IMG/VR virus record: IMGVR_UViG_3300037484_000435
Span: 256,001-320,000 of that record
Origin: a virus
Taxonomy: Duplodnaviria > Caudoviricetes
DNA: 64,000 nt
Reading direction: 5' to 3' (one strand)
Shown here: piece by piece, positions 5,886 through 64,000 of the stretch
Layout of the letters: the number at the start of each line of letters is the position of its first letter
How positions within the stretch are numbered: the stretch's first letter is position 1
The notes under the pieces: model-generated
Databases searched by the model: none
What the model was told of the DNA's origin: nothing
Seen by the model: the letters and a program-made list of their open reading frames with translations, nothing else
Program-made: the position numbers and the translations under genes

Positions 5886-5887
5886 CG

Positions 5888-24646: not shown

Positions 24647-24716
24647 TACATAATTCCTCCAACTAGTATACTGCTTTAATCAACAGGTTACTTAATTTGT
24701 GTGTCCCAACAACTGA

Positions 24717-25900: not shown

Positions 25901-25912
25901 AAAATTTCTCCA

Positions 25913-27246: not shown

Positions 27247-27257
27247 CTACTTTTCTC

Positions 27258-27980: not shown

Positions 27981-27984
27981 TTAG

Positions 27985-29884: not shown

Positions 29885-29892
29885 CCTCCTTA
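29885..29892 (-). promoter_or_regulatory. Full-consensus Shine-Dalgarno (TAAGGAGG) that overlaps the stop codon of the 832-aa gene
   Basis: The minus strand reads ATT-TAAGGAGG-GGT-ATGGCT, indicating bacterial-type translational coupling. Confidence 0.75.
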
Positions 29893-32388: not shown

Positions 32389-32394
32389 TCGTTA

Positions 32395-35300
32395 TTAATC
32401 TCCAAATTCACTATTAGGTGTGCGAGGTACTGCTGACGGAACTTGCTGCTGACCAGCAGACGATTTAGCCTGATTCGCTGCTTCTAATGCATCTTTGGCT
32501 ATCCTCTCCGCGTCGGTAGCTTTCTGTACTGCAGTGTCTACACTAGTCTTCAAACCTGATGTGTCTTTTTCCTGTAGTTTTGCCTGATCTTCCAGTTTTG
32601 CCAGGGTCTCTTGAGCCCTATCCACTATACTTTGTAGTTGCTTGGTTAATTCTGGGCTAGCAGCATTTTCAGCAGAAGCAGCAACTCCGGCTGCACCCTT
32701 AACTGCATCTAGGGCCTCCTTAACTTTTTCTGTAACTGTGTTTTTAAATTCCTCTTGTGTTAGGAACCCACTTTCTTTAACTTGATTCGCTATAGCTCCA
32801 ACTGACCCCTCTGCCAAGACTGCTGTAACTTGAGCACCTGGGGCCAACTCAACTTTGATACCTTGGAGTTTCTCAGCGACCGCACTACCAATGTTACCAC
32901 CAGCAGCATTTAAGGCTTCCACTAAGGAATTTATAGCGGTTTCTAAAGTCGAACCCTTCTCCGTACTTTGATTCTCCAACTGCCTAAAATTACCTTCAGA
33001 CGGCGTGGCATACGGTGAAGTAGCAGGGGGTACCGCTGGAACTTCCGTACCTGCTGGTTTAGTTTCAGGTACTGTTGGATTTACTGGTGGAGTAACTTCT
33101 TTTGCTTTCTCCTCTTGTTTTGAATTTTCTAGAGCGGTCTTCACATCTTGTACCGCTTTTAAGATACCTTCCTCAACTGTTTTTGTCTCTAAAGCTTTCT
33201 GGATGGCCCCAAGTTTCTCTTCCAATGGACCTAGGGAGGCTCCCATTTTATCTGTATTAAAAACCCCTTCTTTTGTGGGTGTTGTGGGATTTACCCATGC
33301 TTGACTAGGTTCCATTCGTAGTGGAGTCATTGCAGATGTCACCCCATCGCCTGCTCTGTAGGGGGAGGAATACTTACTGGGGTCAGTCGACACAACAACT
33401 TGAGACTGTGTAGATGCTGTACTAGGTTGAAAACCCCTATAGTCGTAACCTTTATTACTCTGTGCTGTATCTGGGTTTATCCCCGTGCTAAGCATTCTGT
33501 CTCTCTCTTCGTTTAACGAAGCTCTAGTACGCATAGCGGCGGCGTCACCTGCATTGGCTCCTACTTCATCAATACTACCAGCACGATTAACTCTACCCAT
33601 CATTTGAGCGTCAACAATATGTGTTCCCCTACCCCCTAACATTTCAGGCCAGTTAGTAACAAATACTTGAGTAATCCCCTCGGCAGCCTTTGCAGCTGAA
33701 ATACCGCCTGCCTGTCCAGTTTTAGGTCCTCCGTAAACTGGTCCCACACCAACCTTATCCGGAATAGAGTCTGAAGCAGCTTTATAGTAGCGAGGATCCA
33801 CAATACCCTTTTCTTGATCAGCATAATAGTTAGGAACTTCCCCGCCCGCGTCTCTAATCTTTTGTTTTTGTTTCTCATAATAGGACCATGCTTCTGGTTC
33901 TAATTGTACACCTGCGGCTATATGTCTTTGAGTTCTATACGCAAGCATCTGGTCTCTTGTCCACGCACCACCAGTAGCAGGTTTTCCTTGATCGGCTAAA
34001 CCACCAGTACCAGTAGCAGGACCCTCAGCAGGAAATAATCCTCCCTGTGGCATTACCATACCACCAGATAGACCAGCATTCATAAAATCACCTTGGTTAG
34101 GAAACGCTCTAGTAAGATCACCAAAATTCTTGGGCATAGGTAAAATATTTGGCTGTGTGGCGGCATCTACACGAGCCTGTTCTTCCCCAGGAGTTCTTAA
34201 AATAGAAGGTTTTTCGTTTGGTACTTGAATACCAGCAAGTCGCATATTGGCAGCTTGAACACTAGTACCCATAGTTCCTGGCATAATAGCAGGGCCTTTA
34301 AGCCGAACCTTTAGAGCTAATTGTTCTTCGGGAGTATTAGCCCCCTGCTTCATATAAGCTTGTTCTTCCCAAAGTTCCATATGCTCTGGTTTAATCTGGG
34401 ATTCTCTTTTATTAAACAAATTGCCCATATCCGCACCAGTCCAACCCTCAGGAACATTTCCTGTGCGTAACGTATCCTCTTGCTCTGGCGTTAACCCAGT
34501 AAGTCTAGACTCCCAATCTCGACCCGTCCCTGTGCGTGCTCCAGTAAAAGTACTTTTCATATAAGCAGGCATACCGCCCGTAATAATTTCTTTTTCGGAA
34601 ACTTGCTGATACTCTGTTAATTGTTTTCTTGCGGCTTCCTGCTTTTCATCAAACTCTTTTCCGCCCTTTCCAAAAAGACCCTTTATGCCTGTCCATCCTA
34701 TTTGCCCACCAGAAGATTTTGTAGCCATATCATACGCTTCTTGTCCGTGTTTCTCAACAAATCCAGCTTTTATTATTTCATCCATTTGGCTACGAGCCCC
34801 ACTATAAGTATGGCCCCTTTTGCCACCAGTAATAAATTCTTCAGCCTTTCCTATACCCCCCCAAATAGTTGGAGAGATCAATCCTTTGGCTCCCCCTAAG
34901 GCATACTCTGGAAGGAATTTGCTGACCACATTTTCTCCCATTTCTAGAGTTCCTCCTAGGGCCCCCATAATCGTTTCGGCTCCTTTCAACATGGTGTTAG
35001 GCACAACCCCCAAGGGCTCTACATACGGAGCAATTGCTTCTACAGCACCACCAAGTTTTCCTTCTTTTCCTAACCCCAAACCCTCTTTAACTTGCCCCCC
35101 TACTTCTCCCCAATACTTGGAGGCCATCTGTAAAGTAGGATCCAAGGCTAAGCCTTTTACACCTTCGTTTGCAAAATTCATGGCTATCTCACTAGCTAAG
35201 ACACCACCACCAAACCTCAATGGAACTTTAAGAGCACTCAATCCTTTTAGATTATTGAGCCCAGGAAGAGTTTCCGATACCATTGTTTGTCCCAGCCCAA

Positions 35301-38300: not shown

Positions 38301-41300
38301 CTTCCTTTACAGTGTCAGGTGTAGTAGGTTCTTTAGGAGCAACGCCCGCAAACTCGTCATACATTGCTTTAATTGCTATGTCAACTCCCCCTGTTTTATA
38401 GGCCTCCCCAGCACCTTTAGCCTCAAAGTATCTTTGGTTCCACTCAACTCGCTCTGGAGATTTCGCCCGCTCAGAAGCAGCTTGTTCTTTCTGTGTCCGT
38501 CCTTTATCTAATCCTTTATCTCTTCTCCATTTTATAAATACATCTTCATGTTCTTTTCCCCACGCCTTTTTATGTTTACGTTTCCATTCTTTCTCCTCAT
38601 CGGTTTCCACCCCTTGGCTAATATCCTCGTAAGCCTGATTGACTGCTTGAAAACGCTTGACAGCCTCATCCGGAAGAACCCCTTGAGCAACAAGTTTATC
38701 TGGGTGTGTTTGCTTAACTTGTCTCCTATAAGCCTTCTTGATCTCCTCTGGAGATGCATTTCGTTCTATCCCAAGTATCTCGTGCGGTGTTTGGCCCCCT
38801 ACTGCCCCATCCCACGAAGCACTTTCACTAAAACCACGACCACCCACATCTCTTACTTCTCTTTCCATATCCCTTAAACGTAGCATTGTTGGTGTGACAA
38901 CTTGTTCAGGAAAACTTTGCTTCATTTCTCTCTGGGCCCTACGTTCTGCACGTAGCTTTGCTCGGTCCTCTTTTCTAGGAGCAACTAATTCTGGGTATCT
39001 AGCACGGGTCTGTTCGGTAGATTTTCTAATAGCCTCAGCGAAATTAGGCGCATAACTTTCCATTCTATCAGCCATACTTTCCATCATACCCACAGTTTGT
39101 GGTTTTATATCTGTTCCCACACGTGTTATCTTATTTAAACCTTCGTCCCCAACAGTTTCTCTAAATTGCTTGAACAAACGCATACCCGCCGTCATCTTTT
39201 GTTCTGGCGATAAAGTAGGAGAGACAGTAAAACCTCTGAAAACACCGCCCCGCTCGCCCAACTTGTAGGACAAACTTGCCGCTTTCTCATGTTGAGGTGT
39301 AAACAAATCAAGTACATCGTAGCCACCCTCACGGCCCTTTGACGATATTTCCTTGTGATACCAGTCTGGGGCGGGCCTTCTCTGCACAGGTGTTTCGACC
39401 CCACCAAACATACCCTTTAGAGAACCAAGTAAACTAGCACTCTCGCTAAAGTTATCCTTATTAATTACAGGTGCGGACTCCCTCTTACGATTAAGTAACA
39501 TATAAGGATAGGCGTAACGTGCTTGGTTTAATGCTGGTGGTGTAAATCCCTTTTGGTCTTCTTCATCCTTTAAAACCTTTGGCTGTCCTTCTAAAACAGA
39601 CTCGAAAGCCGCTTGAACTGCCCCAGTTCTTTGTTGTGGTTGAGCAGTAGTTAGGGTGGGGACTTGTAAAGTTTCCTCGCCCACCGATTGAATCATACGT
39701 TCCTTTGCAGTTTGAATAAGTCTTCTATCTTTCTCTATAAGCTGCGGACTTTTAAGAATTCGATCAAGAATGGCGGCTCCCCCGCGAACCATATTCTGCA
39801 TACCTGGGTCGGTTATCTTTTCTCCAAATGCGACTTTAGATTGAATATACCTTATTATCATCTCTTCAATCTTATCTTGATATTCTTGTTTCTTATCCTT
39901 ATTTGAATAACTCCCCCCAGGACCAAATTCGGGAAGACTGGTATAAGCCTGCACTTCTTTTAATATACGCGAGTTGGGCGCAAAGTGTAAACGTTTATAA
40001 ATATCTTCTGTTGTTTCTCCCAAAGGTTTCTTATCTACTTGTGCGTTACGTAAAACTTTTGCCACAGGGTGCAGGCCCGCTTCATGCGCAACACTCAACC
40101 ACGTAGGAACGTCATACCCAGATTCACGCATTTGCCCGTTTTCTAAATCAAAACGGCTTCCTTTTCTAGATCCAGTAGAAACCATGGCTGCAGAACCCAC
40201 ACCACCATAAGTGCCTTTCTGTGCTGATATGCCACGAGTTGTTAAATAACCAGTTGCTGTTGGGACTTTCCCAATATCAGGATCGTCTGTGAATGAGAGC
40301 AATCCTCCCTCAGTATTATATACTCGGTCAGCCTTAAACCCTTTAGGGGCAAGATATTCCCAAGCTTCTCTATTCAACGAGGGCTTAATTGTGTTAGCAA
40401 TATTCATGGCCTGCTGCCCAAGATCTGCCAATGGGGGTTCCGTTATTTTAGTAGGTTGTCCACTCGGAGCCGTGGTAGGTGCTGGTAAAACAAAAGGAAT
40501 AATATTAGGAGATCCAGTGGGAATTGTTGCTGTTACTGGGGTCTCTGATATAATATTACGAGCGGGCTTAACTGGAGGACCCACTACTGTAGAAGTAGCA
40601 GCGTAGACTTGTCCTGCTTGATAACTCCCTGTGGATTCGATAGCAGATTGAGCAGTGCCTCTTGATACTTCTGGTGGTGTAGACGGCACCGCAGAAGAAC
40701 CTCCACCACGTTCATCCTTACTGGTTCCCGTTCCCTTATCCCCACACAAACACTTTTGTATAGTAAGTAATGTTTCGGATATTTTATTCAAAAGTTTGGA
40801 TTTATCTAGGCTCTCCTTCATAGCTAAATCCATAACCCTGACCATTTCTCTACCTTGAGCCGACTTAATGCCTGCATCATCGGCCTTGCTCATAAGGTCC
40901 CTCATTTCTCCGCCTTCAGGCCCTAACCCTTTTAAATAAATCTGTTCTTGTTTTAGGTCCATCGCTGGTTGATAATTAACAACACGCCACATCTCTCTGC
41001 CCTGCGACGATCTAACCCCGTGCTCTGAGGCCATCTTCATATTTTCAGCTTCGTTTAAAGCAGACATTTCTGCTACAGGATTTCCTTCTGCGCGTTTTCT
41101 TATCCCAGATAACCACTCGGCTTCTTCTGCCCCAGCCATCGGTTTCAATTGCCCAAACATACTCCCGCCCAGTATGCCAGGCGTTGTTTCAGAACCATAA
41201 ACATTCTTCAAAATCCAAGGGTCTACACCAGCACCGCCACGGGCGGTAGACGCTAAACCTTGCTGCAAAGATTGCTCTTTCCACTTCTCTACGTATTTTT

Positions 41301-56300: not shown

Positions 56301-59300
56301 AAACAAGATTTCCTAGTAATCCTCCAGTCAGTTCGTTATAAAAACCCCCAATAACCCCTAAGTCTTCTTTACCTACTCTTCCAAACGCATCCTTTAGATT
56401 ACCAAATATAGCGTCCCTGATAAAACTACCTATATCAGTAATAAAAGTGGCGGGTAATCCTACTGTTGTTAAGCCTGATTGAATCAATCGGTAAGCTTGG
56501 TTAGCATAATCCTTTACCCCTTCACCAATACCAGTCATTACTTTTATTAAATTTTGAATGTTTTCATTACCCAAAGACATCCGTAATGAATCCAAGACAT
56601 TATTTTTCAAATCACCGAAGAAACTCATTAATCCTTCGGAAATAGTCAAAGCCAAATCCTTTAATACTTTTTGTATATTAGCAGTTCTAGTCTCAGAAAA
56701 CATTTTAGAAATTAATGCTCCGCCAGATTCTGCTGAAGATATTAATGCTGCTGCTCCAGTGATGGTTTTGGCGTACCACTCGGAAATAACTCTTCCACCT
56801 GAATTTATCGCCGCATTAATTGCTCCTGTAAATTGGTCTGCTTGAGGTTGATACTGGTCAAGCATCCCATAAAGCTCTTTTCCTTGTGGAACCCCGAGTC
56901 TCTCAGGTAAATTAGATAAGGAAACATACTGTTTAGAAACCTGATAATTGCGACCTGTAAGCGCATCGTATCTATTTTCACGACCAAACATGTCCCCGTA
57001 ACTCTGCGCTGGTTTGGTGGTTATAGTTTCTTGGAGTTTCTCTAAATTCCCTCCAGTAAGCTGTTCAGCTACCTGCCGCATAGTGTCTAAATTCCTTCCA
57101 GCCTTTACTTCAAAAAATTTATCCAAGCCTTTGTCGCTAGTTAATTTCATAAAGTCACCAGCAGTAGTACCTTTTCCAACTCCTAAAATATCTTGCTCTA
57201 CTTTCATCATGGCGGCATCTAATTCAGCGTTAGCGTCATCAAGCTTCTTAGAGATATCTTTCATACGTCCGGATAGAAATGGTGGGATCATTCCAGTTTG
57301 TGCCCCACCTTCGTACCCAAACTTCCCAGTCACCCCTAGATAAGGAACAAATCTCTGAGTGTTTATAGTTCTTAGTGGTGTAGCTCCCAACATTTGGGCC
57401 TTTTCTTGCGCAGCTTTTAATTCGCCCATTTGTGAAAGCAATGCTTGCTGTTTTTCGTAAGGAGTTTTAGGCAACAGTGCTTCAGACCATTGCTTTCCGA
57501 CTACCGGTATAGTTTCAAGTGCTGATTGTAAAGAGCCCCTTACTTGATTCGCCCCAGTCCCAGTTGGAAATATAGTGCCTGCCCTAAGTTTTGCAAGATC
57601 AATTTTTTCCATGTTTTGTAAAACATTCAGCTGTGATTGAAAGACATCTAATAAATTACGGGCCTTAACAGTAGTGTCAAGTATTGCATTACCAAACACA
57701 TCATACCCTTTTGCTAGGGTTGGCACCATCTGAACACTAGCACGAGTAGCCTCATCCTCTGCCTTTTTAAACTCCGCTATTTTTGTCACCACAGACTTAT
57801 AGTTCTTTGACATGCCTTCGCTATATACCAGCCTATCTCGTTCCTTTTCTGCACCGGAAGGAAGGTTTGGGCCAGCGGCTGGTGTAGTTAATTGTTTTTC
57901 AGTTTCCAGCAATACCTGTCTTTTGGTTTCCGCGTCTGTCCATTTCTTTTCTAAATCCGACATTTCGGTAAATTGTTGCCGGATCTGTCCTGGAGCATTC
58001 ATACGTGTTTGGTAACGACGCAACGTTGATTCTGGTCCACCAGCCACATCTTGTATCTTTTCTCTGCTAGAGTAGGCAAATCCAGCAGCTAAACCTAACG
58101 GAAGTAGACTTCTTATAACTCCAGTCCCAGCCCCCGCAGCTGTCCCCATAACTGCGCCCATCACCTTTGACGCGAGAGAGATAGAACCTATTGCTGCAGC
58201 TAAGGGTAATAGTTTATCACCAGAGTCTCCCATCAACCCCAATGCTGCAGTAACACCAGCCAGAACGAGGCCAAGATTGCCAGCTGAGGACGACATAGAA
58301 GAGAACATCGAGTTAAACGTCCTACCTGTGGCCAGAGTCAAATAAGCCATCTTACCTAAAGTGGTAGAAGCATCCCCCAAACCTCCAATGTCTTTTACAC
58401 TTTCGACCGCCCCTAGTGTACTTCTAATGGGAGATACTGCGAATTGAGTAATACCAGAGACGGCACCTGTGGCACCAGAACTTAGTCCAAAATTCTGTAG
58501 TCCACTCATTACCTTCTCGATTTGACTAGAAAATGTTGCGAATGTACCTAGTCCTAAAATAATCTGTTTAATACGATCGGGAACCAATGTAAAAGCCCCA
58601 ACCAACCCTCTGGTAGCATCCGTTAAAACTTTCATTGGCTCAATAGCAAGCTTTCCGAAATCAGTGTACATTTCCTGCATAGATGCTCTTAATTGCTGAT
58701 ACTTTGTATTAAGTGTGTCCAACTGCAACTCCAACCTAGCCTCAGTAGCTCCTTGTGAGTTCATTGAATCAGAAACCGAATCTTGTGCTTCCTTAAAATT
58801 GTCCATCAAAGTAATAAATGCGTTATAATGACGGGCACCAGCAATAACGCTAGCATAATTTTGTCTTTGAGCATCCGACATTGTTTGCCATTTGACATTT
58901 AACTCCTCTAGGAAACGCATGCCGGGTTTTAATTCACCACTCGGTAACAGGGTGTCCATCTTAAGTTCATCTTTTAATTTATTTCTTACAGCTGAGGTCT
59001 GCAAATTTTTAAACATGAACCTTAAGGCAGTACCAACCTCCTCCCCTGTCTGACGTGTCACAACAGCAATAGCCGTGATTATACCATTAAGTTCGTGAAA
59101 ATCTACACCAGCAGTTCTAGCGGCGGATCCAGCTCGAAGCATACCACTTGCTAACTCCTTAGCTGTTATTGCGTGCTTAACGTCAACATTTATCCATGCA
59201 TCTAAATATTTTTGAGCGGCGCCCATCTGCTCACCGTATTGTTTTGTAGCTGCAGTCAAGTACTCAGTAACCTCAGCAGATTTCATGTCAGTAACTGTTG

Positions 59301-62300
59301 CCGCCATAACAGCCACACGAGTTCGGTCAATGATTTCAGCTTGTTTTAAACCTTGCTGACCAAATACTACCATAGCATCTAGAACATCTTTGACATTAAC
59401 CCCCATACCAGTGGCCATACCAAAGGCAGCATCTCTAATTTTATTCAAATTAGTAACTTGTGGATCTGTGACCTTTGCTATATTCATTATGGCCGTCTCT
59501 ACATCTGCCATTGTGGAGACCATTTTTTTGAATTCAGTCGCTACAGTACCTACAATTGCAGCGGCCCCGCCCCACTTGGTAATAGTTTCTACAGCCCCAA
59601 AAAATGTCTGTGACTCGGCAACTTGTTTATTCATGTCGGTAAAGTTTACTTTAACTCCGTTTGCCGCCAATGAAGTTTTAGTTAAGTCCGCTCGAATCTT
59701 TTCTAATACAGCCCCAGCCTCATCTTTAACCTCTAAGTTTAAAGACATTGCTTGGCCCTCTTTCATATCAGGACTAGTAGCAACCTTTTGTTTGTAGTAT
59801 TCTAGTAATTGCTTATTTCCAGAAACCTGTTGTGGAACAGACAGCCCCATAGGTATGATAGGGGCAGCCGCCTGCATCATCGGGTCAAACCGACCTGAGA
59901 ATTTCGTTTGTTGTGCGGGTCCTCGGAATTGTTCTTCAAGGGACTTCCAATATCGGAGACTCTCAACAGTAGTATTGGGGTCTCGACCTGCCTCGTGCAC
60001 TGTGGAACGTAAATAGCCATGAACACCAGATATATCTTTTGGTACATTGGTTGAGGTCTTTAAAATCCCACTCATTACTTCTTGGTAAATAGAAGTGGGG
60101 CTAATTCCGGTAGGCTCTAAACTCTGAAGAGCTTCTACTGCCTTCTTAGATACACCCTCTAACCCTTTGGACAGGAAACCCCCCACTGAGATTACATCAC
60201 TGAAAGCTTCAGGACGTCCGAGGGAAACATTCTCACGATCTCCAGCACCTAGGAAACCACCAGACCGGTAAGTTCTAAAAGGATCCGATAGAGGATGTAC
60301 AGCTGTTGAGGACCTAAGAGCAGTAGCAACATATTTGATGATATATTCATCGATTTCTTTACTTAAATGGGCAACAGTATTTTTGTTGCCGGCTTGTGCC
60401 GCGGTATTTAATTCATTCCGCAAACCTTGTAAATGGTTCAAATAAGTTTCAGATATATGGGCCAAAGTTGCTTTCTGGGATTTTGCGACCTTACTTTTAT
60501 CAGAAGTATCCACAGTCACAGTATTTTGTAGAGATTGGAAAGAACCCAATACTTGGTCTAAAGTTTTACCTTGCATGCTACTGGGCACTACATCTTTTAT
60601 CTCTGATGGTAATCTCCAAGGAGAACGAGCAGAAACAGGAGTATACCCCCGCAACGTAGGCTCCTCAAGCTCTGCTTCTTGTGCTGGACTATAAGAAGAG
60701 CTTCCCTCGTAATAATCAAGCCGTGCTCTTTCTCTTTCCTTTCTAAGTAAAGATGTTCCAACCTCTTTCCCAAAATATTGTCCTGCCAGTAAACCTCCTA
60801 TACCAAGACCTATCTTGCTTATGGGACTAACACCAGCCTTGAAACCTGCAATACCACCAAGTAATGCTCCACCTCTCGACATCCAAGTTCTATTCGTTTT
60901 TAATTTATCCACATATTCTGGGTCCATATACTCAGGGTAGAGAGATTCCATACTACCCTCATCTGCTAAATCTGCCCTCTCTTTGTCTGAAAGCCACTTG
61001 TCCACCTCGGCACCGCGTGGTCCCTGTTTACCGCCTATACCAAAAACTTTTCTTTCAATTTTCTCACCAATATGGCCCCCAACAACACCACCACCAAGAC
61101 TACCAGCCAGTGCACCTAGAACACGGACTAAGGTTGCCGCCTTAGGCCCGCCGCCGCCCATAGATCTTAAGGCCGTTGAGGCTGGAGCAGTTAATCTAGA
61201 ACCTAGAGCAGCCCCCATAGCAATAGTTGCGGCCTGAACAATCTGCTCAGGTATTTCGCTAGCTATAGCCCTAACGGGAGAAACCCCTTGCGCAACTTTC
61301 TCCTTTACATCGTAAGCCCCAACTGCAAAATGACCTAAAGCTGGAATCATCTTAAATGCGCCACCGGCCACACCTTTTAATGCATCAGTAAAATCACTTT
61401 GTCTCAAAGCTTGTCCCACATCAGACATACCCGTCCCGAAAGCCTCAATTGGCTGTGTAACTAGGCCCCTGAGCCCCCTAATACCACTTAATAAAGCACC
61501 AGGTCTACGTGATAAACCAGATACACCACTAGAAGCCATTACTCCAGACGGAACCCCCCAGCTTTCATTATAAGGCATACCTCCTAGACCAAGATGTTCA
61601 ACCGCAAATTTACCTATACCCCTATTTTTTGAACCCAATAGATTACCAGGACCGTAGATTTCTCCTACTTGTCTATTAAATTCTTCCATAAGACCTGTGC
61701 CAGTCACATCTCTACCGGGGAGCATTTGTTTTGCTGATTCATACACACTAGGTAGTATTTTGAATGATTTTTCTAAGCCTTCCTCGGTAAAATAGCGTCT
61801 AGCCATCAAAGCTCTGGCCCCCATACCCAGACCTTGGGCAGTTGATTGTGCAGCACTAACCGCCTGTGGAACACCATAGGCGAGCAAGTCTACACCACCG
61901 TGGGTAACGTCTGCCGTACTTCGTAAGAATTTCTGGGATACAGGGGGTGGAGCAGGAACCTGCCCAGTAGACATGTGGTAAACCATTCTATTTGCAGCTG
62001 CCTTTTTTATTGCATCTGGACTTCCTTTTTGACTAATAGCTTCCTGAACTGTTTTCTCATAATCTAACGCTGATTCAGCTGGGCCAAGACGCTGCGCGGT
62101 ATCCATCCATTTAGTGGTGTCAAAAGGTGACTCTTTAAATGAATCTGGATATTCCATCATCCTGCTAATCTTTTTAAATTCTAAATCGATTAATTCTCTT
62201 ATGTTTTTTTCCGTTAACCCACGAGACCTAGTCCGTCCTGCTTCCAAACCCAATCCTGTAGTACCCCGATATGTAGGAAATTCCTTTAGACCAGCACCTA

Positions 62301-64000
62301 ATCCAGACAGTTGTTCAGTAATCATATTTGACACATTTTCATCTACACCAGCAATGGATTTGTAAGCACTATAGGGAGATTTCATAAGGGTCCAAGGCAA
62401 GCGTAATCCGAAAGATGTTGCCCCATACCCCAATTGTGCGCCGCCTTTCGCAACACTTCCTAAGGCGTGTGTAAAACTTGGGGGAACTTCATTTCCCCTA
62501 GAAAATAACTTTTCTAACCCAGTGTCCTTCAAAATACTTTCAACAATATTCTGTGGTATACCGTCCTTACCCATCGTTCCTCTCGCCAGTGCACCTAAAT
62601 TCTGCCGTAATGCGAAAGCAAGACCCCTAACAGTTGATGGGTGCATACCAACATAATCAACTGGCCGATCAATAGATTTGGTTGGTTCAATCCTCATCCC
62701 GTAAGGGTCCTTATTCTCAAGAAGTGATTCTTTAGTATCAAACCTTCCCAAGGTTATGGGTTCTGGCATATTTATTGTGTAAGGGCCAACTTTAGCTTCC
62801 CCCTCTAAACTTAGTAATGCATTGCCGTGGGTTTTCTTTCTCAACAATCCCACCAAATGTGGGTCAATACCCTCTAGCATTCTCTGTGGGGCACCTAAAA
62901 ACCTCTTCTCTCTTACCCCAGGATGAGATAAGACTTCTAGTGCTTTACTTACTTCAGATGGATCAAACCCTAAAGCAGCGGAGACTAGCCCTGGGGTTCC
63001 AAGAGATACCTCAAATTTACGCGACTTGTCTTCTGCTTCCCACTCAAATGTTTTCTTCTTGAGAGATTTGGTCCCCTCGAACAAAGGCGAGTAGGCCTTC
63101 ATAGCCAAATCCTGCTGTAATCTTCCTTGCAAAGCCTGAATTTCTTGAGTGTTACTTTTCGACATCTTCATTTCTGGGTGTCCAGCAAGGATTTCTTGCA
63201 TGGCTTCCCAACGTGCGGCGGGGGATTTACTAAAAGGCTTCCCAACCTCCCCTGCCCTCTTCTGGGCCTGTTCAAACTGTCTTTGATAAACATCCTTAGA
63301 TGTACTAGACATTGCCTCAGAGATAAATTTATCTACAAGAGGACTCGATACAGCCCTAGTCTTCCACATTCCCTTGACAGATTCTGGGGCTTCATTAATA
63401 TCTAAGTGCGTTTTTTCATGTGCGTATGTTTGTTGGATTGACCTTCCAATACCTTCTTTTTCAGTTCCTTTAGCGGACATATAAGCCTTAATAATTTCTG
63501 GTGGCATGTATATCTTACCGCCCCCACCAAGACCCACAGCAAAACCTTGTTTTAAGTAATTAAGGTTACGGTCTTGTGACATACCACGCTGTCTAAAAGG
63601 TTCCGCTGATACCGTCAAGTTCCCACCCTTTAGGAGGTTAGCAACCGTGTCAGTTCCCTTGGCAGGAGCAAAAGACGGTAAACCTTCGAGAGAATTCTCC
63701 TCGGGCGTTCTAACAGACATTTGTTGAATTTTTGCAGCTGCTGCAGAAATACCCAAAGAAGCTGGAATACGCAACACCATTCTACTTACTTCCCCACTTT
63801 GGTCTGAAAACCATAAACCTAATTGAGAAATTTTATCTATAATAGCAGAGTAGTGTTTACCTAGATCTACACTAGGTACATTTTCAGATACGGCGTCATA
63901 TGTTCTGTATAAGCCCGACACGACATCATCATACATCTTACCAACACCACCATAGAAGTTACTCGCAAAATCCTCAACTTGTGGTCGTTTAGAGAGTATA
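32395..64000 (-). CDS. Giant phage tail tape measure protein (partial, >10,534 aa; N-terminus lies beyond the window)
   Basis: The track ORF is 10,513 aa from ATG 63936, but the 21 codons upstream to the window edge are also open (...ILSKRPQVEDFASNFYGGVGK-MYDD). Contains a TP901-type core, long coiled-coil and Gly-zipper segments and the TMP-like C-terminal motif GITQVFVTNWP, and is followed by hub/baseplate genes. Confidence 0.9.
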   Translation of the reverse strand, partial: ILSKRPQVEDFASNFYGGVGKMYDDVVSGLYRTYDAVSENVPSVDLGKHYSAIIDKISQLGLWFSDQSGEVSRMVLRIPASLGISAAAAKIQQMSVRTPEENSLEGLPSFAPAKGTDTVANLLKGGNLTVSAEPFRQRGMSQDRNLNYLKQGFAVGLGGGGKIYMPPEIIKAYMSAKGTEKEGIGRSIQQTYAHEKTHLDINEAPESVKGMWKTRAVSSPLVDKFISEAMSSTSKDVYQRQFEQAQKRAGEVGKPFSKSPAARWEAMQEILAGHPEMKMSKSNTQEIQALQGRLQQDLAMKAYSPLFEGTKSLKKKTFEWEAEDKSRKFEVSLGTPGLVSAALGFDPSEVSKALEVLSHPGVREKRFLGAPQRMLEGIDPHLVGLLRKKTHGNALLSLEGEAKVGPYTINMPEPITLGRFDTKESLLENKDPYGMRIEPTKSIDRPVDYVGMHPSTVRGLAFALRQNLGALARGTMGKDGIPQNIVESILKDTGLEKLFSRGNEVPPSFTHALGSVAKGGAQLGYGATSFGLRLPWTLMKSPYSAYKSIAGVDENVSNMITEQLSGLGAGLKEFPTYRGTTGLGLEAGRTRSRGLTEKNIRELIDLEFKKISRMMEYPDSFKESPFDTTKWMDTAQRLGPAESALDYEKTVQEAISQKGSPDAIKKAAANRMVYHMSTGQVPAPPPVSQKFLRSTADVTHGGVDLLAYGVPQAVSAAQSTAQGLGMGARALMARRYFTEEGLEKSFKILPSVYESAKQMLPGRDVTGTGLMEEFNRQVGEIYGPGNLLGSKNRGIGKFAVEHLGLGGMPYNESWGVPSGVMASSGVSGLSRRPGALLSGIRGLRGLVTQPIEAFGTGMSDVGQALRQSDFTDALKGVAGGAFKMIPALGHFAVGAYDVKEKVAQGVSPVRAIASEIPEQIVQAATIAMGAALGSRLTAPASTALRSMGGGGPKAATLVRVLGALAGSLGGGVVGGHIGEKIERKVFGIGGKQGPRGAEVDKWLSDKERADLADEGSMESLYPEYMDPEYVDKLKTNRTWMSRGGALLGGIAGFKAGVSPISKIGLGIGGLLAGQYFGKEVGTSLLRKERERARLDYYEGSSSYSPAQEAELEEPTLRGYTPVSARSPWRLPSEIKDVVPSSMQGKTLDQVLGSFQSLQNTVTVDTSDKSKVAKSQKATLAHISETYLNHLQGLRNELNTAAQAGNKNTVAHLSKEIDEYIIKYVATALRSSTAVHPLSDPFRTYRSGGFLGAGDRENVSLGRPEAFSDVISVGGFLSKGLEGVSKKAVEALQSLEPTGISPTSIYQEVMSGILKTSTNVPKDISGVHGYLRSTVHEAGRDPNTTVESLRYWKSLEEQFRGPAQQTKFSGRFDPMMQAAAPIIPMGLSVPQQVSGNKQLLEYYKQKVATSPDMKEGQAMSLNLEVKDEAGAVLEKIRADLTKTSLAANGVKVNFTDMNKQVAESQTFFGAVETITKWGGAAAIVGTVATEFKKMVSTMADVETAIMNIAKVTDPQVTNLNKIRDAAFGMATGMGVNVKDVLDAMVVFGQQGLKQAEIIDRTRVAVMAATVTDMKSAEVTEYLTAATKQYGEQMGAAQKYLDAWINVDVKHAITAKELASGMLRAGSAARTAGVDFHELNGIITAIAVVTRQTGEEVGTALRFMFKNLQTSAVRNKLKDELKMDTLLPSGELKPGMRFLEELNVKWQTMSDAQRQNYASVIAGARHYNAFITLMDNFKEAQDSVSDSMNSQGATEARLELQLDTLNTKYQQLRASMQEMYTDFGKLAIEPMKVLTDATRGLVGAFTLVPDRIKQIILGLGTFATFSSQIEKVMSGLQNFGLSSGATGAVSGITQFAVSPIRSTLGAVESVKDIGGLGDASTTLGKMAYLTLATGRTFNSMFSSMSSSAGNLGLVLAGVTAALGLMGDSGDKLLPLAAAIGSISLASKVMGAVMGTAAGAGTGVIRSLLPLGLAAGFAYSSREKIQDVAGGPESTLRRYQTRMNAPGQIRQQFTEMSDLEKKWTDAETKRQVLLETEKQLTTPAAGPNLPSGAEKERDRLVYSEGMSKNYKSVVTKIAEFKKAEDEATRASVQMVPTLAKGYDVFGNAILDTTVKARNLLDVFQSQLNVLQNMEKIDLAKLRAGTIFPTGTGANQVRGSLQSALETIPVVGKQWSEALLPKTPYEKQQALLSQMGELKAAQEKAQMLGATPLRTINTQRFVPYLGVTGKFGYEGGAQTGMIPPFLSGRMKDISKKLDDANAELDAAMMKVEQDILGVGKGTTAGDFMKLTSDKGLDKFFEVKAGRNLDTMRQVAEQLTGGNLEKLQETITTKPAQSYGDMFGRENRYDALTGRNYQVSKQYVSLSNLPERLGVPQGKELYGMLDQYQPQADQFTGAINAAINSGGRVISEWYAKTITGAAALISSAESGGALISKMFSETRTANIQKVLKDLALTISEGLMSFFGDLKNNVLDSLRMSLGNENIQNLIKVMTGIGEGVKDYANQAYRLIQSGLTTVGLPATFITDIGSFIRDAIFGNLKDAFGRVGKEDLGVIGGFYNELTGGLLGNLVSATKGMGNIIAEGLSSAFRGISNIIVSSIGAVSPDIANKVQGAFSFLSSIGTSDIKTVITGSFTTLSNTVKGVMGWVKDEAKRIEAATPKTGGEEESAVAKRFLARQERWNLMLQQQGLAKEVITEGVTRGAMQEPKALVATSAGEGKYYVAVGAVGEGANEQILNTKEPQDWTTMTKIAYQEVESARAKGIKPGDTMGWTQLTQEAYKTGALSPEKAMPLIMPEPGELPYAQGRAPGGLEERRIGWENLQGKIETWSRKQAGMFDIGKEYEKTKQYAGGGAAMFMPKFQGHEALKLGEKFLFEVEGSRKAQDAMWEVAEAIRDMDVQWKLYTSDTASADKSASKIKEMQDLLVKKRKLEFLIQVREEWENTFNTIAKAKIDEQVTIAQDRAEVAARRVKVGFESEDRLPVKMPTKPKAWAELSEEQKLGIINPEYARVTQRQSETEMRGQRYIQTEKLLAGTDTRTRLMAEDLKEQLGGRLGESLGKENVDRILRSIGTAPEGKKEDAALVGLQTSQLHLIEKVISELQDLNRSAATANKSDKQLLSDYDKYTADYKKTLASANEKNLSEPERFQRLKLAEQYRQLASTSGQRLVEGQPNSNLLKQKVPSEAISNALPGFVEYAQTKITNFDKKWEPIVGKQFTQKKGLSGWMGAFEDLFTSPQERDQQFLEKAQQYYTSKLGPKTKAGDIGVKTPAVDIESEAWSNLSQNWKPVSMDLEAVGPAADVVSKAIDKLWSTWTDLIGLGKMTIGLDLGGWFRDLGKDAEGLSDSVETKVSGAISKTGKGISDYIVGAMDYVTKSPDFSSYESTYKDKGSHLGDRFLRAIGVREDRGFDWQKPSPLWRVAEEDAGYVKPYQDPLREAMVENYYDFDKRERGLRTVAERAKKTKRFTPAGFMPESGLREDLLGEQDRENFLQMMGQPKEPDSFPAWAARGTVGSLYDLTSFLPDIGRTLVGGPTSERDKLKSTASWGTHLRQFMGLAGEQPISWGDWAKQTVGMPVPNFERETATIAANRRLGTPMEEQQRRWGNIPRPPAVSRPEPEFPMAERVWKDFDLGGLWMEGINSLTNNLPSRISKRISDLHIGRRINNALGNVFGEDRLSKLIGIEEISMKDRFDPMFLAKRDLVQWKKEKAERDKLQREATRARAIMEGGMPEPSRYLRPLQAGVGAYLGSQVAEKFFGGNILKATEAGNSLLKSLSQSADWDRRIMLNHSDWLRQIADNTAVMRAAAPAGGVIGSGSDDQLAPRSRLLRASIEQSQSMSFMGAAVTAAAAYMAFKLITRAYPGAFQGVGGLVKGLPESFLATHPVPTQTNLGDPRILENLITDAKRYGERQPRFADWSTQPNFQGDIWKRAMRDPRQFETSAGQQLLPATTPAQSSRWYQRLVNGEPEGTAGPTLGRSGLRRFAVGAALGGLMPTVISSLMFSGFLGAGTRGGSALGGLVGPRTGVAGHVLGGSMLGGAGLLSIAALGPVGMAAIGGLAGVMTLLPHVSNLKKDMQMTYDFVRAITGALGKGEALGGITSFVRERMIPITGTTAKLTALRPTAWAAEGLSSLAGRAGASIGGLPGMSSTAGVVIERSLLGLSGALGAVGRTMRGWIDGINRLQAWAADTTVTDRINNLGVSTALRLSQWPLKLADSLRLIELSLTQGLGKQSFIGVFDNVINFLRTNVRARVESAIGVSATQSISRVASPFVSAARNILQPTPVVDQITGARAWQPGIIGRAFAGRRLEGLYDRASERWARAGAPQYVRAGERMPWALSERGGTRGFMLGAGLSALELGTGLPGTLIGGALGSVGYRAALGTGFRPGLMAAGAAGTLGALGPTGFGELMHIAPEAGAALGAYGGIRAGAFGQWAKPAQGRYGVDPFYSQRLMEEIASGVGTDRQTSNIFRARNRFMAGGAIGTLTGLGGIKGSILGLTAGHPVLSTLAAGGMATLAGASLPLAAGVAAAGGIYGAVTRRMTGRGIQERMMQTAEQVHLAQLGMGNQSLTPSTASGEQAVFGGIGAVATPKYKQVWNFMSGLLGGKGTPVGAELEEQFMRQQFMRQRGTLPGMGGLDIVQSRAQQFWMDNLMSQYYAGRSRGQTGLPTISAGPNALNHSEFFTRMVGMPNVQNAGSAIDNLRGPNTSRFGMTPQDVQHRLPIIESFGILQNTRTQYQDTFRNIMDTDAKLAEPRQHLMESVELKERRLRRNDKYIASTKKLLDSTNQALESATDNDIMRKLGESRAKFEARLDDLKRARAGIESLFSSQAGQFEAEIRRLEEIRDKHIGKFGVLEKRLAQIRELLSGGVPRQRGGSRVTVGDITVPEADIEREIQQREAYLKRTSAAKTDRSGQSLATELQYEIDRRVQGGMSPQHEEIRRLQTLQTNLSNPANQQGRAETGRERNARIATEKQGIDVLQNQLSRRGELGFVLNEARQNMQQQGYTLNQGDVPLPANVQEGLYRRISQDQAEASMKRRTGPAGTPAATVPLQELHDALIRTEQIDRGFFAPRNRIMARTMPEINGTQLRPVSNRVEAELRRRLRERAIDAEMMPGTQQDRAGRLVAEAIVNERGVDISSEAMTGEMNRLYRQTRRGPAPGVRRMGIENMLREAHGLGNTTPLPEEANREYENIIRGLDERSRATRVVDSTRVDMRTPEVLESARRVRSARNNAGALQRLAADIFPARDVLSPQDLQSYLGDDVRPGVATHRTRGQIIENLYRRGIASGIQSPALPRDPMGAYTIMAGVAKEHLAVRGGALTQGLRTPAEGSLVSPLKQLGIEQEWHRLHELEANIREMDRNNVGRGDPLYTRHVQERNRVNTIVETALKPQEMFRTSEDVAVRRTELQAELKRVNAEMRRVSEVLKEFTQQGAENVSRLSQVKMDPEMRRYYRNKPVAEVYTDLQTRAQTLGTHEKLITDVEAGKANYFETVSGQTRLYSTIERLNEMLNQMKTGAGKDVNTTYTELSRAIETLPPELQRNYSIYAERLREYVSHGSDRFVQPLQNLTEMIRTERPINAGEITQRLHATLTQTEGAPGTVQQPLTRDVLQARINDFLKAEMIDPMSQAGKEIQRFSASLAEGNRDIRTNIRGMSLAFQELERTGMPRPSGLSPSKGAGMTGMMLTMMGTEYAASKLEETFKLSHAQAYGGIAGVAGLGSILMNVGGGKPALGNVGAMPRAFGQGVMSVIRPDVMVAQEIGGAAGKGMTWKSNLFGEGGTLKTIMGGAKAETAALERAIADFNKGLPVAEEFGHLGKTATGKILTAFPSVAKSLPALRGVGHALPAVGVVAETISGVTEAKEKYGVGGLTSIVPELVGALGLQGILMGIFSAVGSVFAGPLGTVAGAAASALAYDLVKPLGTKIKDFIYENIMGIELVGKANPVVDMSAFSPAARKQSEFARANKDLEDLRKQSTVSVPSQLTSALVPLLGAGGMMVGMKSFNEKMDSEMLEDRMRSQTGYMSELIGGDKGTFDELSKTEFGKYLKSTDKSGYRELDRDYKRIAMLKRQAQEEGGIDKVINIAAGLGKGAKDTLGFDPLLGFSPLKAMGVGPTPTQELEKAIEALRDKMKAQALKISDNPEKIKQELEEMELRRQSLKNDNAEVLALTAAFAKARAASEELAQTFKTSKENMGFGRGFGGPDIQQRMRDVTEATPMDRFKQEQPAVYQAWTRFESEEKAYQSQMQEISQKSVGERTKLQQQLGFITLENNPKLQKEVTKNEGGKYSDFINFQNQAKRIVSATPAEAVGMRETFLALGGKITRAQDDKLKNMEETIPFLDNLEDLKGKTKSKKVSAAGTEIEEQLTAVAKRRQQLLEDRKAGKISEKELGPQIDRLSSIEQALNALRDKAQAEVPLRAARTAGYEIARGISEIDAGVKQYDALNKKLEELRDNYAGIITAGEAMMRLFKEMQAVERARLEIKRAELGWNRNEVTGVAGAELQKATYSWGPMSSNYGKVAPLTQNLLPKPIAEMTAEELVALNPDNKRDIEKINQKRAMVEEAQKADVQARAAMDSAAIAREAVANEQSRVNKLPKEAELTTSQREKLKTTIETSIPAAEQALKSAVPEREKAAKELEKVKAKYKDRNLGEEWSKLSGEYSEKYKGNFGTPEAVSFKKKVDEAKQRFDELNSAESNYSAASSNESKWNTELDQLKQTKRDLEAGRSINLQGIKNNLERTAEMLKDLEEKLAKEDLPTKTKEELDKLIRELKAEESKVVKLLAEGFVKQLNNMLVGMRAKFEVALPHEFNISALKQAPGSIMAGIAMPTQIQEGPRTQFDLNPQEYFAKFGGPEAKQAQEAQMRRNQVISEIDATKSELQKMASLYAQEKQPGGDKNRADQYEKGMKAAEAKIEALTQEVSTLDETLKKASQKLWEIKIVMETKKMIVDITTAVGTLGQKISDSRNASLFTQSGYMGETQRPQWYSYEMSPSQLMAKHAPKMYETGMQAQELERQWKEQLGRSAGEVQATQAKRTMAAASGDQESVAELDRQLAFLQQKHEGLTEAYKGQMKALEGLAQQFAVTLAKMEALQESMQLLKQTMGDLARISGDMLSRELKSPVAGAAKGVAEYQWQETKAEHELTPREVVTKYAPNLAAEAHMGTATVNTLAEKAGAFQQKEVEARLMGGITTGKEQEKYLAQAEIFGKASTVFKGSAEEARKALEPLIEKINMLGKVAQVAQKFEQLAVQLEVMARTRWGLDTVRMDTEMGKHPSSVQRARMETIGGKNVIMPGMGADYRTQSSDYEEFDREYPEKVPVAFRQGSKEAQELAALDAKNRSGEIKPGEYRAQKERITWTAKEEQINYLQKREDQKFERQKGVAQEAEKTIEETEVMYGGQFPDLVKTFAPMKSKLKEDMEKAADIVDNRGGVATRRGFESLSEFKQMSNILKQAIKVEDSAQTARFTWVPIVDAIRNLQEALTGSTKDLTEDQKAAFKQVMDPTGYAKDMLAQLQAGVLGQTTYGATSSTSTTTTNNFTTEEVRKKQEEAQLKSINERKDWTDINVGRNVSVTDTTSDTVYQKYVEKWKEQSLQQGLASTARGGAGVDPWILKNVYGSETTPGILGGSMFGQLKPMAGAEEAEWLSGIRKRAEGNPVAEMSALNEAENMKMASEHGVRSSQGREMWRVVNYQPAMDLKQEQIYLKGLGPEGGEMRDLMSKADDAGIKSAQGREMVRVMDLAMKESLDKSKLLNKISETLLTIQKCLCGDKGTGTSKDERGGGSSAVPSTPPEVSRGTAQSAIESTGSYQAGQVYAATSTVVGPPVKPARNIISETPVTATIPTGSPNIIPFVLPAPTTAPSGQPTKITEPPLADLGQQAMNIANTIKPSLNREAWEYLAPKGFKADRVYNTEGGLLSFTDDPDIGKVPTATGYLTTRGISAQKGTYGGVGSAAMVSTGSRKGSRFDLENGQMRESGYDVPTWLSVAHEAGLHPVAKVLRNAQVDKKPLGETTEDIYKRLHFAPNSRILKEVQAYTSLPEFGPGGSYSNKDKKQEYQDKIEEMIIRYIQSKVAFGEKITDPGMQNMVRGGAAILDRILKSPQLIEKDRRLIQTAKERMIQSVGEETLQVPTLTTAQPQQRTGAVQAAFESVLEGQPKVLKDEEDQKGFTPPALNQARYAYPYMLLNRKRESAPVINKDNFSESASLLGSLKGMFGGVETPVQRRPAPDWYHKEISSKGREGGYDVLDLFTPQHEKAASLSYKLGERGGVFRGFTVSPTLSPEQKMTAGMRLFKQFRETVGDEGLNKITRVGTDIKPQTVGMMESMADRMESYAPNFAEAIRKSTEQTRARYPELVAPRKEDRAKLRAERRAQREMKQSFPEQVVTPTMLRLRDMEREVRDVGGRGFSESASWDGAVGGQTPHEILGIERNASPEEIKKAYRRQVKQTHPDKLVAQGVLPDEAVKRFQAVNQAYEDISQGVETDEEKEWKRKHKKAWGKEHEDVFIKWRRDKGLDKGRTQKEQAASERAKSPERVEWNQRYFEAKGAGEAYKTGGVDIAIKAMYDEFAGVAPKEPTTPDTVKEDLARKQAEESARMQEEQNRKQAEEAVKRQQQEEIARQERQARANERVSQGGAIDKAGQAEELANYQRLAEEKARAMTSKVESKGPQEGTLSDVERAKQEYRDKRAQLVNERNEARDKAKIAQAAGENVFPGKVAGKYQVKIDALDAEFRGRGGTAYHHVNVENVLAEAEAELAHYEKQGERKLGVKPIQKVQMGSVHKAVRESLEAGIPIEAKHQRSTVMQHAVTDIYQSPHAYGLDNLADLWEKQAKEPLLNEVKTRDVGGAEQALIETEQAPKESRMEAGLRKQSEAMRGSVGEGVESLPGGKGLSPEMSSRDWWIRSQQEAASGTAPQPEKATNKLPDFSEFSGEPADKSMPEAKPQAEKVAEVKARSWRESFNEKGNKVLDFASKHRRAVIGGVLGLGAASGLGLVPAVLGGLAGTAAGEGWDYVKQLRRQEPSQEKLQKEIDRENKRLEKDRELEKEYKDKVDDAKRTMDENKDYKEVKPGIWDRTARRGQRRYEKAEINQVNYEQKRRKAEESIKQREEQIDNLSRQKESASPQKTWREQWEQAKDFVKRPLGGTYDTYDTGKEGDTRWEYVKDLARGAKDYATRDLRTAGEKARGGLDFGEYYNYNTGQRPDTQKGSWWQNIKQGHKELRGEEAIRRGVSQLSEGQLEDMMKRTGQIKETKEFDRGKSVDYLTSRLSEMQQRGTEGGARITQSGKEIGIEHRGGSEYRIGEMGEQIYDALFMEENAAAKRRGRSGSESVREYRKDVGLHEAVEQAVYNRPAEERPELIKNLYEQSKEAFAEKPELWRAAEEAVVAPEGVEKTGYQKDWEKEQVELADKYRDQGLEGNKEYDVAREALAQKQSEQMKLETVSHLTETDVGRDIVLGTKAAKPLREEFITGQTATLGNERLGSRMAGARIFTKAGMAFGGKLEGLEKLAGGGSLAQVAEFVGAKGTAEKLSKNRFGNMSVMGPLMLASLGLHGYEQGSKVEGMEGPNYFSGIAGGAANATIMPKTFGLGQTMVSETLPGLNNLKGLSALKVPLRFGGGVLASEIAMNFANEGVKGLALDPTLQMASKYWGEVGGQVKEGLGLGKEGKLGGAVEAIAPYVEPLGVVPNTMLKGAETIMGALGGTLEMGENVVSKFLPEYALGGAKGLISPTIWGGIGKAEEFITGGKRGHTYSGARSQMDEIIKAGFVEKHGQEAYDMATKSSGGQIGWTGIKGLFGKGGKEFDEKQEAARKQLTEYQQVSEKEIITGGMPAYMKSTFTGARTGTGRDWESRLTGLTPEQEDTLRTGNVPEGWTGADMGNLFNKRESQIKPEHMELWEEQAYMKQGANTPEEQLALKVRLKGPAIMPGTMGTSVQAANMRLAGIQVPNEKPSILRTPGEEQARVDAATQPNILPMPKNFGDLTRAFPNQGDFMNAGLSGGMVMPQGGLFPAEGPATGTGGLADQGKPATGGAWTRDQMLAYRTQRHIAAGVQLEPEAWSYYEKQKQKIRDAGGEVPNYYADQEKGIVDPRYYKAASDSIPDKVGVGPVYGGPKTGQAGGISAAKAAEGITQVFVTNWPEMLGGRGTHIVDAQMMGRVNRAGSIDEVGANAGDAAAMRTRASLNEERDRMLSTGINPDTAQSNKGYDYRGFQPSTASTQSQVVVSTDPSKYSSPYRAGDGVTSAMTPLRMEPSQAWVNPTTPTKEGVFNTDKMGASLGPLEEKLGAIQKALETKTVEEGILKAVQDVKTALENSKQEEKAKEVTPPVNPTVPETKPAGTEVPAVPPATSPYATPSEGNFRQLENQSTEKGSTLETAINSLVEALNAAGGNIGSAVAEKLQGIKVELAPGAQVTAVLAEGSVGAIANQVKESGFLTQEEFKNTVTEKVKEALDAVKGAAGVAASAENAASPELTKQLQSIVDRAQETLAKLEDQAKLQEKDTSGLKTSVDTAVQKATDAERIAKDALEAANQAKSSAGQQQVPSAVPRTPNSEFGD
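38611..38790 (-). other. DnaJ J-domain embedded in the tape measure protein (aa ~8383-8442)
   Basis: TPHEILGIERNASPEEIKKAYRRQVKQTHPDKLVAQGVLPDEAVKRFQAVNQAYEDI reproduces the J-domain consensus, with HPD at 38698-38706. Confidence 0.92.
39840..40260 (-). other. Putative zincin-like (MPTase-type) metallopeptidase motif 2 in the TMP (HExxxH)
   Basis: WLSVAHEAGLHPV at 40069-40086, followed ~70 aa later by IEEMIIRY. Confidence 0.55.
58590..59523 (-). other. TP901-family tape measure core domain (aa ~1472-1780 of the track ORF)
   Basis: MADVETAIMNIAKVTD...AMVVFGQQGL...TRVAVMAATVTDM...YLDAWINVDVKHAITAKELASGMLRAGSAARTAGVDFHELNGIITAIAVVTRQTGEEVGTALRFMF. Confidence 0.85.
63180..63480 (-). other. Putative zincin-like metallopeptidase motif 1 in the TMP (HExxH)
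   Basis: TYAHEKTH at 63406-63420, with a downstream WEAMQEILA (63181-63210) as candidate third zinc ligand. Confidence 0.55.

Follow-up and report, generated by a model that had tools for sequence, protein, structure and literature searches.

In classical siphophages the tape-measure gene sets, by how long it is, the length of the tail (PMC1796659, PMC3271669), and tape-measure length is the one sequence feature that gives a virion dimension, the record so far being 5,002 amino acids (aa) for ~0.9 µm. That record belongs to the Oshimaviruses P74-26 and P23-45, whose tails of ~0.9 µm (PMC12407722) are described as 'nearly 1 um' and as unsurpassed in length among known viruses (PMC10034513). 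The 5,002-aa P23-45 tape measure, gp96 (gene at NC_009803 53287–68295), contains an active virion RNA polymerase in residues 327–1124 with a DFDGD motif at 779 (PMC10770324). Here we describe a tape-measure protein (TMP) of 14,711 aa in an uncultured sediment phage, IMG/VR record IMGVR_UViG_3300037484_000435, an extreme variant almost three times as long as the one that measures the longest viral tail known. The work started from 64,000 nucleotides of this genome (positions 256001–320000, "the window"), in which a first-pass annotation had noted a TMP frame of extreme length and compared it with a benchmark of about 5,000 aa for P74-26, which agrees with the published figure. We favour, with moderate confidence, a tape-measure polyprotein that is ejected at infection and sets an extraordinarily long tail.

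Two further groups of described proteins are relevant. The TP901-1/SPbeta-type tape measures (e.g. SPbeta YomI) share the PF10145 core and the hydrophobic segments after it, but they have only ~900–2,300 aa, carry the core close to the N-terminus and bear no more than a muralytic domain besides; in the present protein the core has 5,700 aa before it and ~9,000 after it. Polyvalent proteins and the virion RNA polymerase giants of N4 and crAss-like phages are likewise single huge, virion-delivered chains which unite unrelated enzymes for early take-over or counter-defence. The domain met most often in injected polyvalent proteins is a zincin-type HExxH/HExxxH peptidase, for which a role in processing these proteins has been proposed (PMC5512222); here, searches confirmed neither zincin nor LPD domains. 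Unlike the present protein these giants are carried via the capsid and not as a tail ruler, and PMC5512222 makes no mention of tape measures. A search of the literature on giant tape measures and the largest phage proteins found nothing relevant; the 'Moraphage' paper (PMC12619734), considered as a candidate, concerns a different, contractile-tailed lineage.

An open frame of 14,712 codons

The window belongs to a single contig (C1) of 545,322 bp with zero N, the termini of which overlap by 146 bp (C1:1–146 and 545177–545322), indicating that the assembly closes as a circle or is terminally redundant. CheckV rates the record as 100% complete, and its IMG/VR label is 'linear' despite the ~146-base terminal repeat. 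Within the window the frame (32395–63999, minus strand) has 10,534 codons without a stop and is cut by the edge, as the first-pass annotation had reported; it continues for another 12.5 kb and in the whole genome occupies positions 288395–332533, 14,712 codons from stop to stop. The contig extends to the true start, a GTG at genome position 332530 (window-equivalent 76530) with a GAGG ~12 nt upstream, and homology backs this choice, as residue 2 of the protein of the nearest relative, a phage which we refer to as G001, aligns to residue 1 here. The product has 14,711 aa and a mass of 1.61 MDa, beside which the extreme length first claimed was an understatement.

A stop-free frame of 44 kb cannot arise by chance. 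All 15 of the 15 segments of 1,000 codons fit the codon usage of the genome in the TMP frame only, with log-likelihoods per codon of −3.9 to −4.0 in this frame vs. −4.7 to −5.2 in the others, and third-position GC content (GC3) is even across the segments (0.30–0.38). An alternative genetic code was considered and rejected: reassigning a stop could do nothing but extend frames, and the coding density is already 89% under code 11.

One doubt raised beforehand was that an assembly or sequencing artefact had fused separate genes, and the genome is indeed a low-depth metagenome assembly (~5× k-mer depth) with one supporting run. The gene, however, holds no internal repeats at protein or DNA level bar one trivial 42-nt tandem, which excludes repeat-driven misassembly and tandem inflation, its composition and codon usage are uniform, and errors break frames rather than fuse them. 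Logan contigs, a separate assembly of the single run that holds the sequence, tile window positions 32001–52000 at 100% identity without indels, alternative joints or loose ends, one 667-nt bin at the 3' edge being without cover; no RNA runs carrying the stretch are listed. G001, from another sample, has a colinear 12,315-aa gene with both gene boundaries and the flanking genes conserved. Because two far-diverged lineages keep 12–15 thousand codons in one frame, a fusion artefact is barely conceivable. The same conservation bears on the idea that several proteins are made from the frame via internal starts, programmed termination or frameshifting and that no 1.6-MDa chain is made. Some structural genes of phages do have internal starts, and a chain built of modules would be compatible with such products, though nothing direct speaks for them; separate products need no stop-free frame, yet 12–15 thousand aa (kaa) are kept stop-free in two lineages only 46% identical and 7–8.6 kaa in dozens more, and we consider this explanation highly improbable. 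The frame is very probably one genuine single gene encoding a tape-measure polyprotein.

Tape-measure core and C-terminal part

By its sequence the protein is a phage tail tape-measure protein, the TP901-type core being unambiguous. PF10145 (PhageMin_Tail) matches window-frame residues 1524–1721 with an E-value of 3.3e-26 (92.8 bits vs. a 33.2-bit cut-off), a six-frame search of the genome scores it at 101 bits as the sole, single-copy match, and twelve PHROG tape-measure families match over about window-frame residues 1400–2100 (best E 4.9e-64). Siphophages of Bacillus, Clostridium and Lactococcus have annotated tape measures, SPbeta YomI among them, with which the core shares ~25% identity. 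The first-pass annotation had placed a TP901 core at least 1,490 aa from the N-terminus; the core itself is real, whilst the true distance in the full-length protein is 5,700 aa.

The post-core part (8,991–8,992 aa) is fast-evolving and rich in helix-forming residues. Its C-terminal ~6,600 aa are unalignable to G001, five C-terminal segments searched against the family by phmmer found nothing, and BLAST gave weak G001 matches to about residue 8,050. Nine Gly/Ala-rich hydrophobic segments occur in the chain (residues 3859, 5131, 6081–6128, 8008–8237, 8680, 10036 and 13135), those directly after the core being typical of tape measures and placed likewise in relatives. A sampled stretch of 1,191 aa (Table 1) was predicted as 75% helix and no strand, with helices of up to ~100 residues and no compact fold (single sequence, pLDDT 48.8), which suggests, with low confidence, that the post-core part is largely helical, as expected of a ruler.

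One could alternatively read the protein as an injected polyvalent effector which merely carries a tape-measure-like domain, tail length being set by something else. Its enzyme content resembles that of polyvalent proteins (PMC5512222), its core is 5,700 aa from the N-terminus, unlike in classical tape measures, and the neighbouring structural genes are unrecognisable. Yet it holds the only PF10145 match of the genome, the family core matches annotated tape measures of cultured siphophages, and the gene sits downstream of capsid and tube-like genes and upstream of large tip- or fibre-like genes, an order which is kept in G001; we regard the effector reading as improbable.

N-terminal enzymes and J-domain

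The earlier suggestion of a TMP plus cargo proved the right frame, as three nucleic-acid enzymes and a DFDGD polymerase-type region lie within the first 5,700 aa. One open frame unites several unrelated enzyme domains: RNA_ligase, LigD_N, RNase H and DnaJ each exceed the Pfam cut-off. The J-domain is the only known domain downstream of the core; it matched 34 solved J-domains, and its HPD tripeptide can be read in the translation ('QTHPDK'). The DFDGD motif lies at residue 1997, off-window and N-terminal to the core, and is invariant in a 32-sequence family alignment; on this motif we treat the surrounding residues (~950–2,430) as a candidate polymerase-type region. A tblastn search of residues 900–2450 against 50,697 phage records gave no match, the N-terminal region being present in no deposited phage. 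The two stretches flanking the DFDGD region (residues 1–950 and 2430–3060) are 46% identical to G001 and have no family, PHROG or PDB match.

The layout closely resembles that of P23-45 gp96 and P74-26 gp95: in these giant tape measures a DFDGD polymerase-type region comes N-terminal to the ruler, and hydrophobic segments come after it. As in gp96, the gene takes a large share of the genome and stands between the presumed positions of tube/chaperone and tail-tip genes, though the neighbours here are without significant tube or tip matches. It differs in being 2.9 times longer, in adding an RNA ligase, a LigD phosphoesterase, an RNase H and a J-domain, and in that the polymerase-type region begins ~950 aa in, vs. 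~330 in gp96. The core profile compared with gp96 by hhalign gave a probability of 0.5%, phmmer against the gp96 structures 8H2M/8H2N gave no match, and no Thermus phage is among the 170 core matches. The architecture is therefore like that of gp96, but as judged from sequence the protein is no detectable member of the gp96 family, and the fusion of polymerase and tape measure appears to be widespread and independently evolved.

Relatives in metagenomes

An exact peptide-word search of IMG/VR found no close relatives, and no deposited phage has near-identical DNA. A core-region profile search of IMG/VR found 56 related loci, and 49 records were scanned for frames; open frames of at least 7,000 codons were present in 28 of the 49, reaching 8,654. 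In a library of 1.84 billion proteins the best 150 core-profile matches top out at 7,998 aa, and our protein, about 1.8× the longest core-bearing protein among them, is also the longest by comparison with these catalogued lengths.

The nearest relative, G001 (IMGVR_UViG_3300005077_000001), is a 256,335 bp, 97% complete genome from another metagenome, with a TMP at 102047–138994 (12,316 codons, 12,315 aa). The two proteins share 46% identity over 3,828 aa in one alignment from residue 1 and 35–42% through residues 4289–6488 (38% through the core), with weak similarity to ~8,050. The cassette of enzymes and the two HExxH modules recur in G001, as do the neighbouring genes; the J-domain is absent there and unique to the 14,711-aa protein. 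Homologues of the 561-, 91-, 235- and 368-aa upstream genes end right before the start of the G001 gene, and its stop is followed by homologues of the 832-, 354-, 240-, 117-, 243-, 137-, 120- and 231-aa genes.

Further relatives form a shorter, 7-kaa class (7,000–8,650 aa; P0004–P0009 and P0013 onward; IMG/VR loci L007–L062) with a homologous N-terminal DFDGD region and a homologous PF10145 core, but without the ligase/phosphoesterase/RNase H cassette, which is common only to the 14,711-aa protein and G001. Because the cassette is absent, the DFDGD-to-core spacing in this class is shorter, ~1,200–1,600 aa vs. ~3,700 aa here. The post-core length falls from 8,991 aa here to 6,667 in G001 and 3,300–4,200 in the 7-kaa class. 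In the collected set, D[FYW]DGD was found upstream of the core in 50/54 proteins of >6 kaa, 21/42 of 4–6 kaa and 1/28 of 3–4 kaa. Going by these sequences, the 14,711-aa protein is not a one-off: it belongs to a family seen only in metagenomes, in which 7,000–8,650 aa are typical and most members bear the DFDGD motif, and it exceeds all of them in length.

The TMP gene takes up 8.1% of the genome here, 14.4% in G001 (256 kb) and 17.8% in P23-45 (84 kb). TMP length does not track genome size, as related records of ~296–298 kb have versions of 4,560–4,650 aa.

HExxH motifs and possible processing

Three zincin-like motifs occur in the chain. HExxH motif 1 (residue 3592, off-window) is conserved together with its region in G001, and the HExxH of module 2 is followed, like motif 1, by a downstream acidic helix; AF2 predicts module 2 as a small alpha/beta domain (pLDDT 80.8), making it a candidate zincin-type processing peptidase. 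A second peptidase had been annotated ~6,400 aa past the core; a HEAGLH motif does lie 6,448 aa after it, but as a motif only, with no support from HMM, profile or fold searches, and the atlas leads for its region (LPD23/LPD1/ATLF) all score <0.9. Pfam found no peptidase match on the full chain, nor on the excised HExx(x)H modules at E-values up to 10, and PDB profile searches of the HExxH modules gave nothing significant. Comparison of module 1 with module 2 by hhalign (probability 7.9%) detected no kinship between them. For module 2, the best Foldseek hit in the PDB had a non-significant E of 0.5, the best against AFDB clusters an E of 0.21, with weak rows naming Peptidase MA-like, M48, DUF4157 and a MuF polyvalent protein, and the best VIA-align hit was to ion-channel helices (Z 5.1), the PprI zincin reaching Z 3.6.

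These modules lead to the reading of a processed polyprotein with a short ruler, in which its own HExxH modules, or else a head/tail protease, would cut the chain into separate products. Only a modest piece, the core with some of what surrounds and follows it, would then stay in the tube, the tail would be long but not remarkable (at most ~0.5–1 µm), and the enzyme pieces would be packaged elsewhere or released. Lambda gpH gets trimmed, the two G001-conserved HExxH modules lie exactly between enzyme cassette and core, module 2 folds confidently, hydrophobic segments divide the chain into modules, and both the weak AFDB rows and the prevalence of such peptidases in polyvalent proteins fit this reading. 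Set against it are the lack of any significant peptidase match by Pfam, PDB profiles, Foldseek or VIA-align, two modules with no detectable relation to each other, and the fact that most members of the 7-kaa family have no HExxH at all. Moreover, gp96 needs its full 5,002 aa for a 0.9-µm tail and its cleavage is not reported (PMC10770324, PMC12407722), and two lineages keep 12–15 kaa in one frame, which would be costly if the parts acted separately. Processing of the chain by HExx(x)H modules is possible but unsupported, and we judge a processed, short ruler unlikely though by no means negligible.

Predicted tail length and mechanism

To convert chain length into tail length we used 1.5 Å per residue, and 1.8 Å per residue as given by the Oshimaviruses (0.9 µm / 5,002 aa). 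If the whole chain of 14,711 aa measured, the tail would reach 2.21 µm at 1.5 Å and 2.65 µm at 1.8 Å; the part from core to C-terminus (8,992 aa) would give 1.35 and 1.62 µm, and the span from core to HEAGLH (6,448 aa), which the first-pass annotation had offered as a possible ruler and which depends on the unconfirmed HExxxH motif, 0.97 and 1.16 µm. The tails of about 1.6 µm or 1 µm suggested in that annotation are likewise extrapolations. A conformation-independent packing bound, with three copies of the chain in a lumen of 40–45 Å, gives 0.37–0.47 µm at 100% filling and 0.74–0.93 µm at 50%. The Oshimavirus tail is explained only if the polymerase part counts towards its length, which favours the longer estimates here. 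Treating the protein as an ejected tape-measure polyprotein commits us to at least the part from core to C-terminus, about 1.35 µm, lying in the tube. The balance tips modestly towards a tail of more than 1 µm, whilst the fullest version, in which the whole chain is measured and a non-contractile tail of about 2.2–2.6 µm would be more than twice the longest viral tail known and longer than most bacterial cells, is tentative and rather doubtful.

Whilst the integrity of the gene, its domain content, family membership and synteny are shown by the sequences, the following course of assembly and ejection is inferred by analogy with lambda gpH, T5 pb2 and P23-45 gp96. The tail tube would polymerise around a few copies of the chain, so that protein length sets tail length. 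At infection the chain would be expelled C-terminus first, and its hydrophobic segments may help to build a channel across the envelope. Host DnaK, recruited by the J-domain, could ratchet the extended chain in or refold it. The N-terminal enzymes would enter last, beside the DNA end, and might there initiate transcription and repair or process the ends of nucleic acids.

Several points weigh against this proposal. Tail length, stoichiometry and the location of the protein are all extrapolated from genes, no virion having been seen, and a lumen of ~4 nm is too narrow for folded domains, the polymerase-type region among them, which must therefore be unfolded, removed by cleavage or located elsewhere. 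The two conserved HExxH modules sit between enzymes and core, where a processing protease would sit; should they have protease activity, the gene could be far longer than the ruler it yields. The prediction of helices has low confidence (pLDDT 48.8) and spans 8% of the protein. The polymerase reading rests on the motif, as the DFDGD region reached only E 0.62 against PDB profiles (an Rpb1 catalytic loop), and hhalign of its profile against gp96 aligned the motif alone at a probability of 3.7%. The tail tube, chaperones and tip proteins are without any significant match, and the read support comes from the one low-depth run (~5× k-mer depth), probably the source sample, so is weak and not independent.

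Either a clade of huge phages has unseen tails of one to several microns, or the ruler rule fails once a tape measure carries cargo. If whole chains measure, the 7–8.6-kaa family would represent phages with tails of 1.1–1.5 µm, and each tail would at the same time serve to deliver megadaltons of unfolded enzymes, the J-domain recruiting host Hsp70 for their pull-in and refolding. The protein would extend the single experimental case of a polymerase-tape-measure fusion, here with an RNA ligase, a 3'-phosphoesterase, an RNase H and a J-domain as extra passengers, and it makes one ask in what way a 4-nm tube can store unfolded chains of megadalton size and how these regain their fold inside the host.

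Table 1. Positions of the TMP gene, its domains and motifs, and neighbouring genes. Positions are in the window unless another sequence is given; residues are those of the full-length protein.
Feature	Position	Strand	Residues	Remarks
TMP gene, in-window part	32395..64000	-		10,534 codons plus stop at 32395–32397; N-terminal 4,177 aa off-window
RNA_ligase	off-window		3060–3216	above Pfam cut-off; matches solved structures
LigD 3'-phosphoesterase (LigD_N)	off-window		3409–3504	above Pfam cut-off; matches solved structures
RNase H (RVT_3/RNase_H)	off-window		3704–3829	above Pfam cut-off; matches solved structures
HExxH module 2	63043..63645	-	4296–4496	HEKTH at 4371; motif intact in G001, 37% identity
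Tape-measure core	57712..59805	-	~5576–6273	PF10145 proper at 58837–59430
Gly/Ala-rich hydrophobic, transmembrane-like segments directly after core	58147..58290	-	6081–6128	
Four-segment transmembrane-like hydrophobic cluster	50416..52509	-	8008–8705	
Sampled 'ruler-like' stretch	42190..45762	-	10,257–11,447	structure prediction
HEAGLH (HExxxH) motif	40069..40086	-	12,149	no homologue in family
J-domain (DnaJ, PF00226)	38617..38787	-	12,582–12,638	49.8 bits vs. 27.8 cut-off
Transmembrane-like hydrophobic segment	37036..37128	-	13,135–13,165	
832-aa gene	29890..32388	-		starts 7 nt past TMP stop; homologue likewise follows G001 TMP stop, 32% identity over 814 aa
561-aa gene	L001 17924–19609 (genome 337924–339609)	-		58% identity to G001
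333-aa sulfotransferase-like gene	L001 16888–17889	-		PF03567, 23.8 bits
Homing-endonuclease sites	23819–28797; L001 13637–15748; L002 4316–5134, 7561–9525			
5,054-, 858- and 1,155-aa ORFs	2–21052			consecutive

Genomic neighbourhood

PHROG and Pfam scans of 20 neighbouring open reading frames (ORFs) gave little beyond homing endonucleases and one weak match to a capsid gene, of HK97 type, 18 kb upstream of the TMP gene on the same strand. The best-conserved neighbour is the 561-aa gene, whose nearest named atlas clusters are the tail-tube families Phage_tube_2, Phi812 tube and YomU tube; this is a lead only, as is the observation that the gene is large enough to encode a tube protein with two fused domains, such as P74-26 and T5 have. 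The 832-aa gene has no family match and is presumed, from its position after the TMP stop and the conservation of this position in G001, to encode a putative tail-tip protein. Neither the sheath models PF04984 and PF17482 nor the siphophage tube families PF04630 and PF06199 gave a Pfam match in these very diverged phages; with two sheath models only, absence of a sheath is not proven, and we tentatively read the tail module as non-contractile.

The 333-aa gene matches a galactose-3-O-sulfotransferase in PHROG, and lies between the tube-like gene and the TMP gene, with no G001 counterpart at that place. At least eight LAGLIDADG/HNH homing-endonuclease genes (PHROG 4645/2255, Pfam LAGLIDADG_3) are found among the structural genes near the TMP gene, and several of the corresponding G001 structural genes sit back to back without homing endonucleases. 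The large downstream ORFs of 5,054, 858 and 1,155 aa share a common C-terminal module of ~830 aa, and all three match one stretch of G001 (150372–152672) at 26–30% identity, a DUF5000 match being the only one of the 5,054-aa protein; they are probably tail-fibre or receptor-binding paralogues with swapped N-terminal parts.

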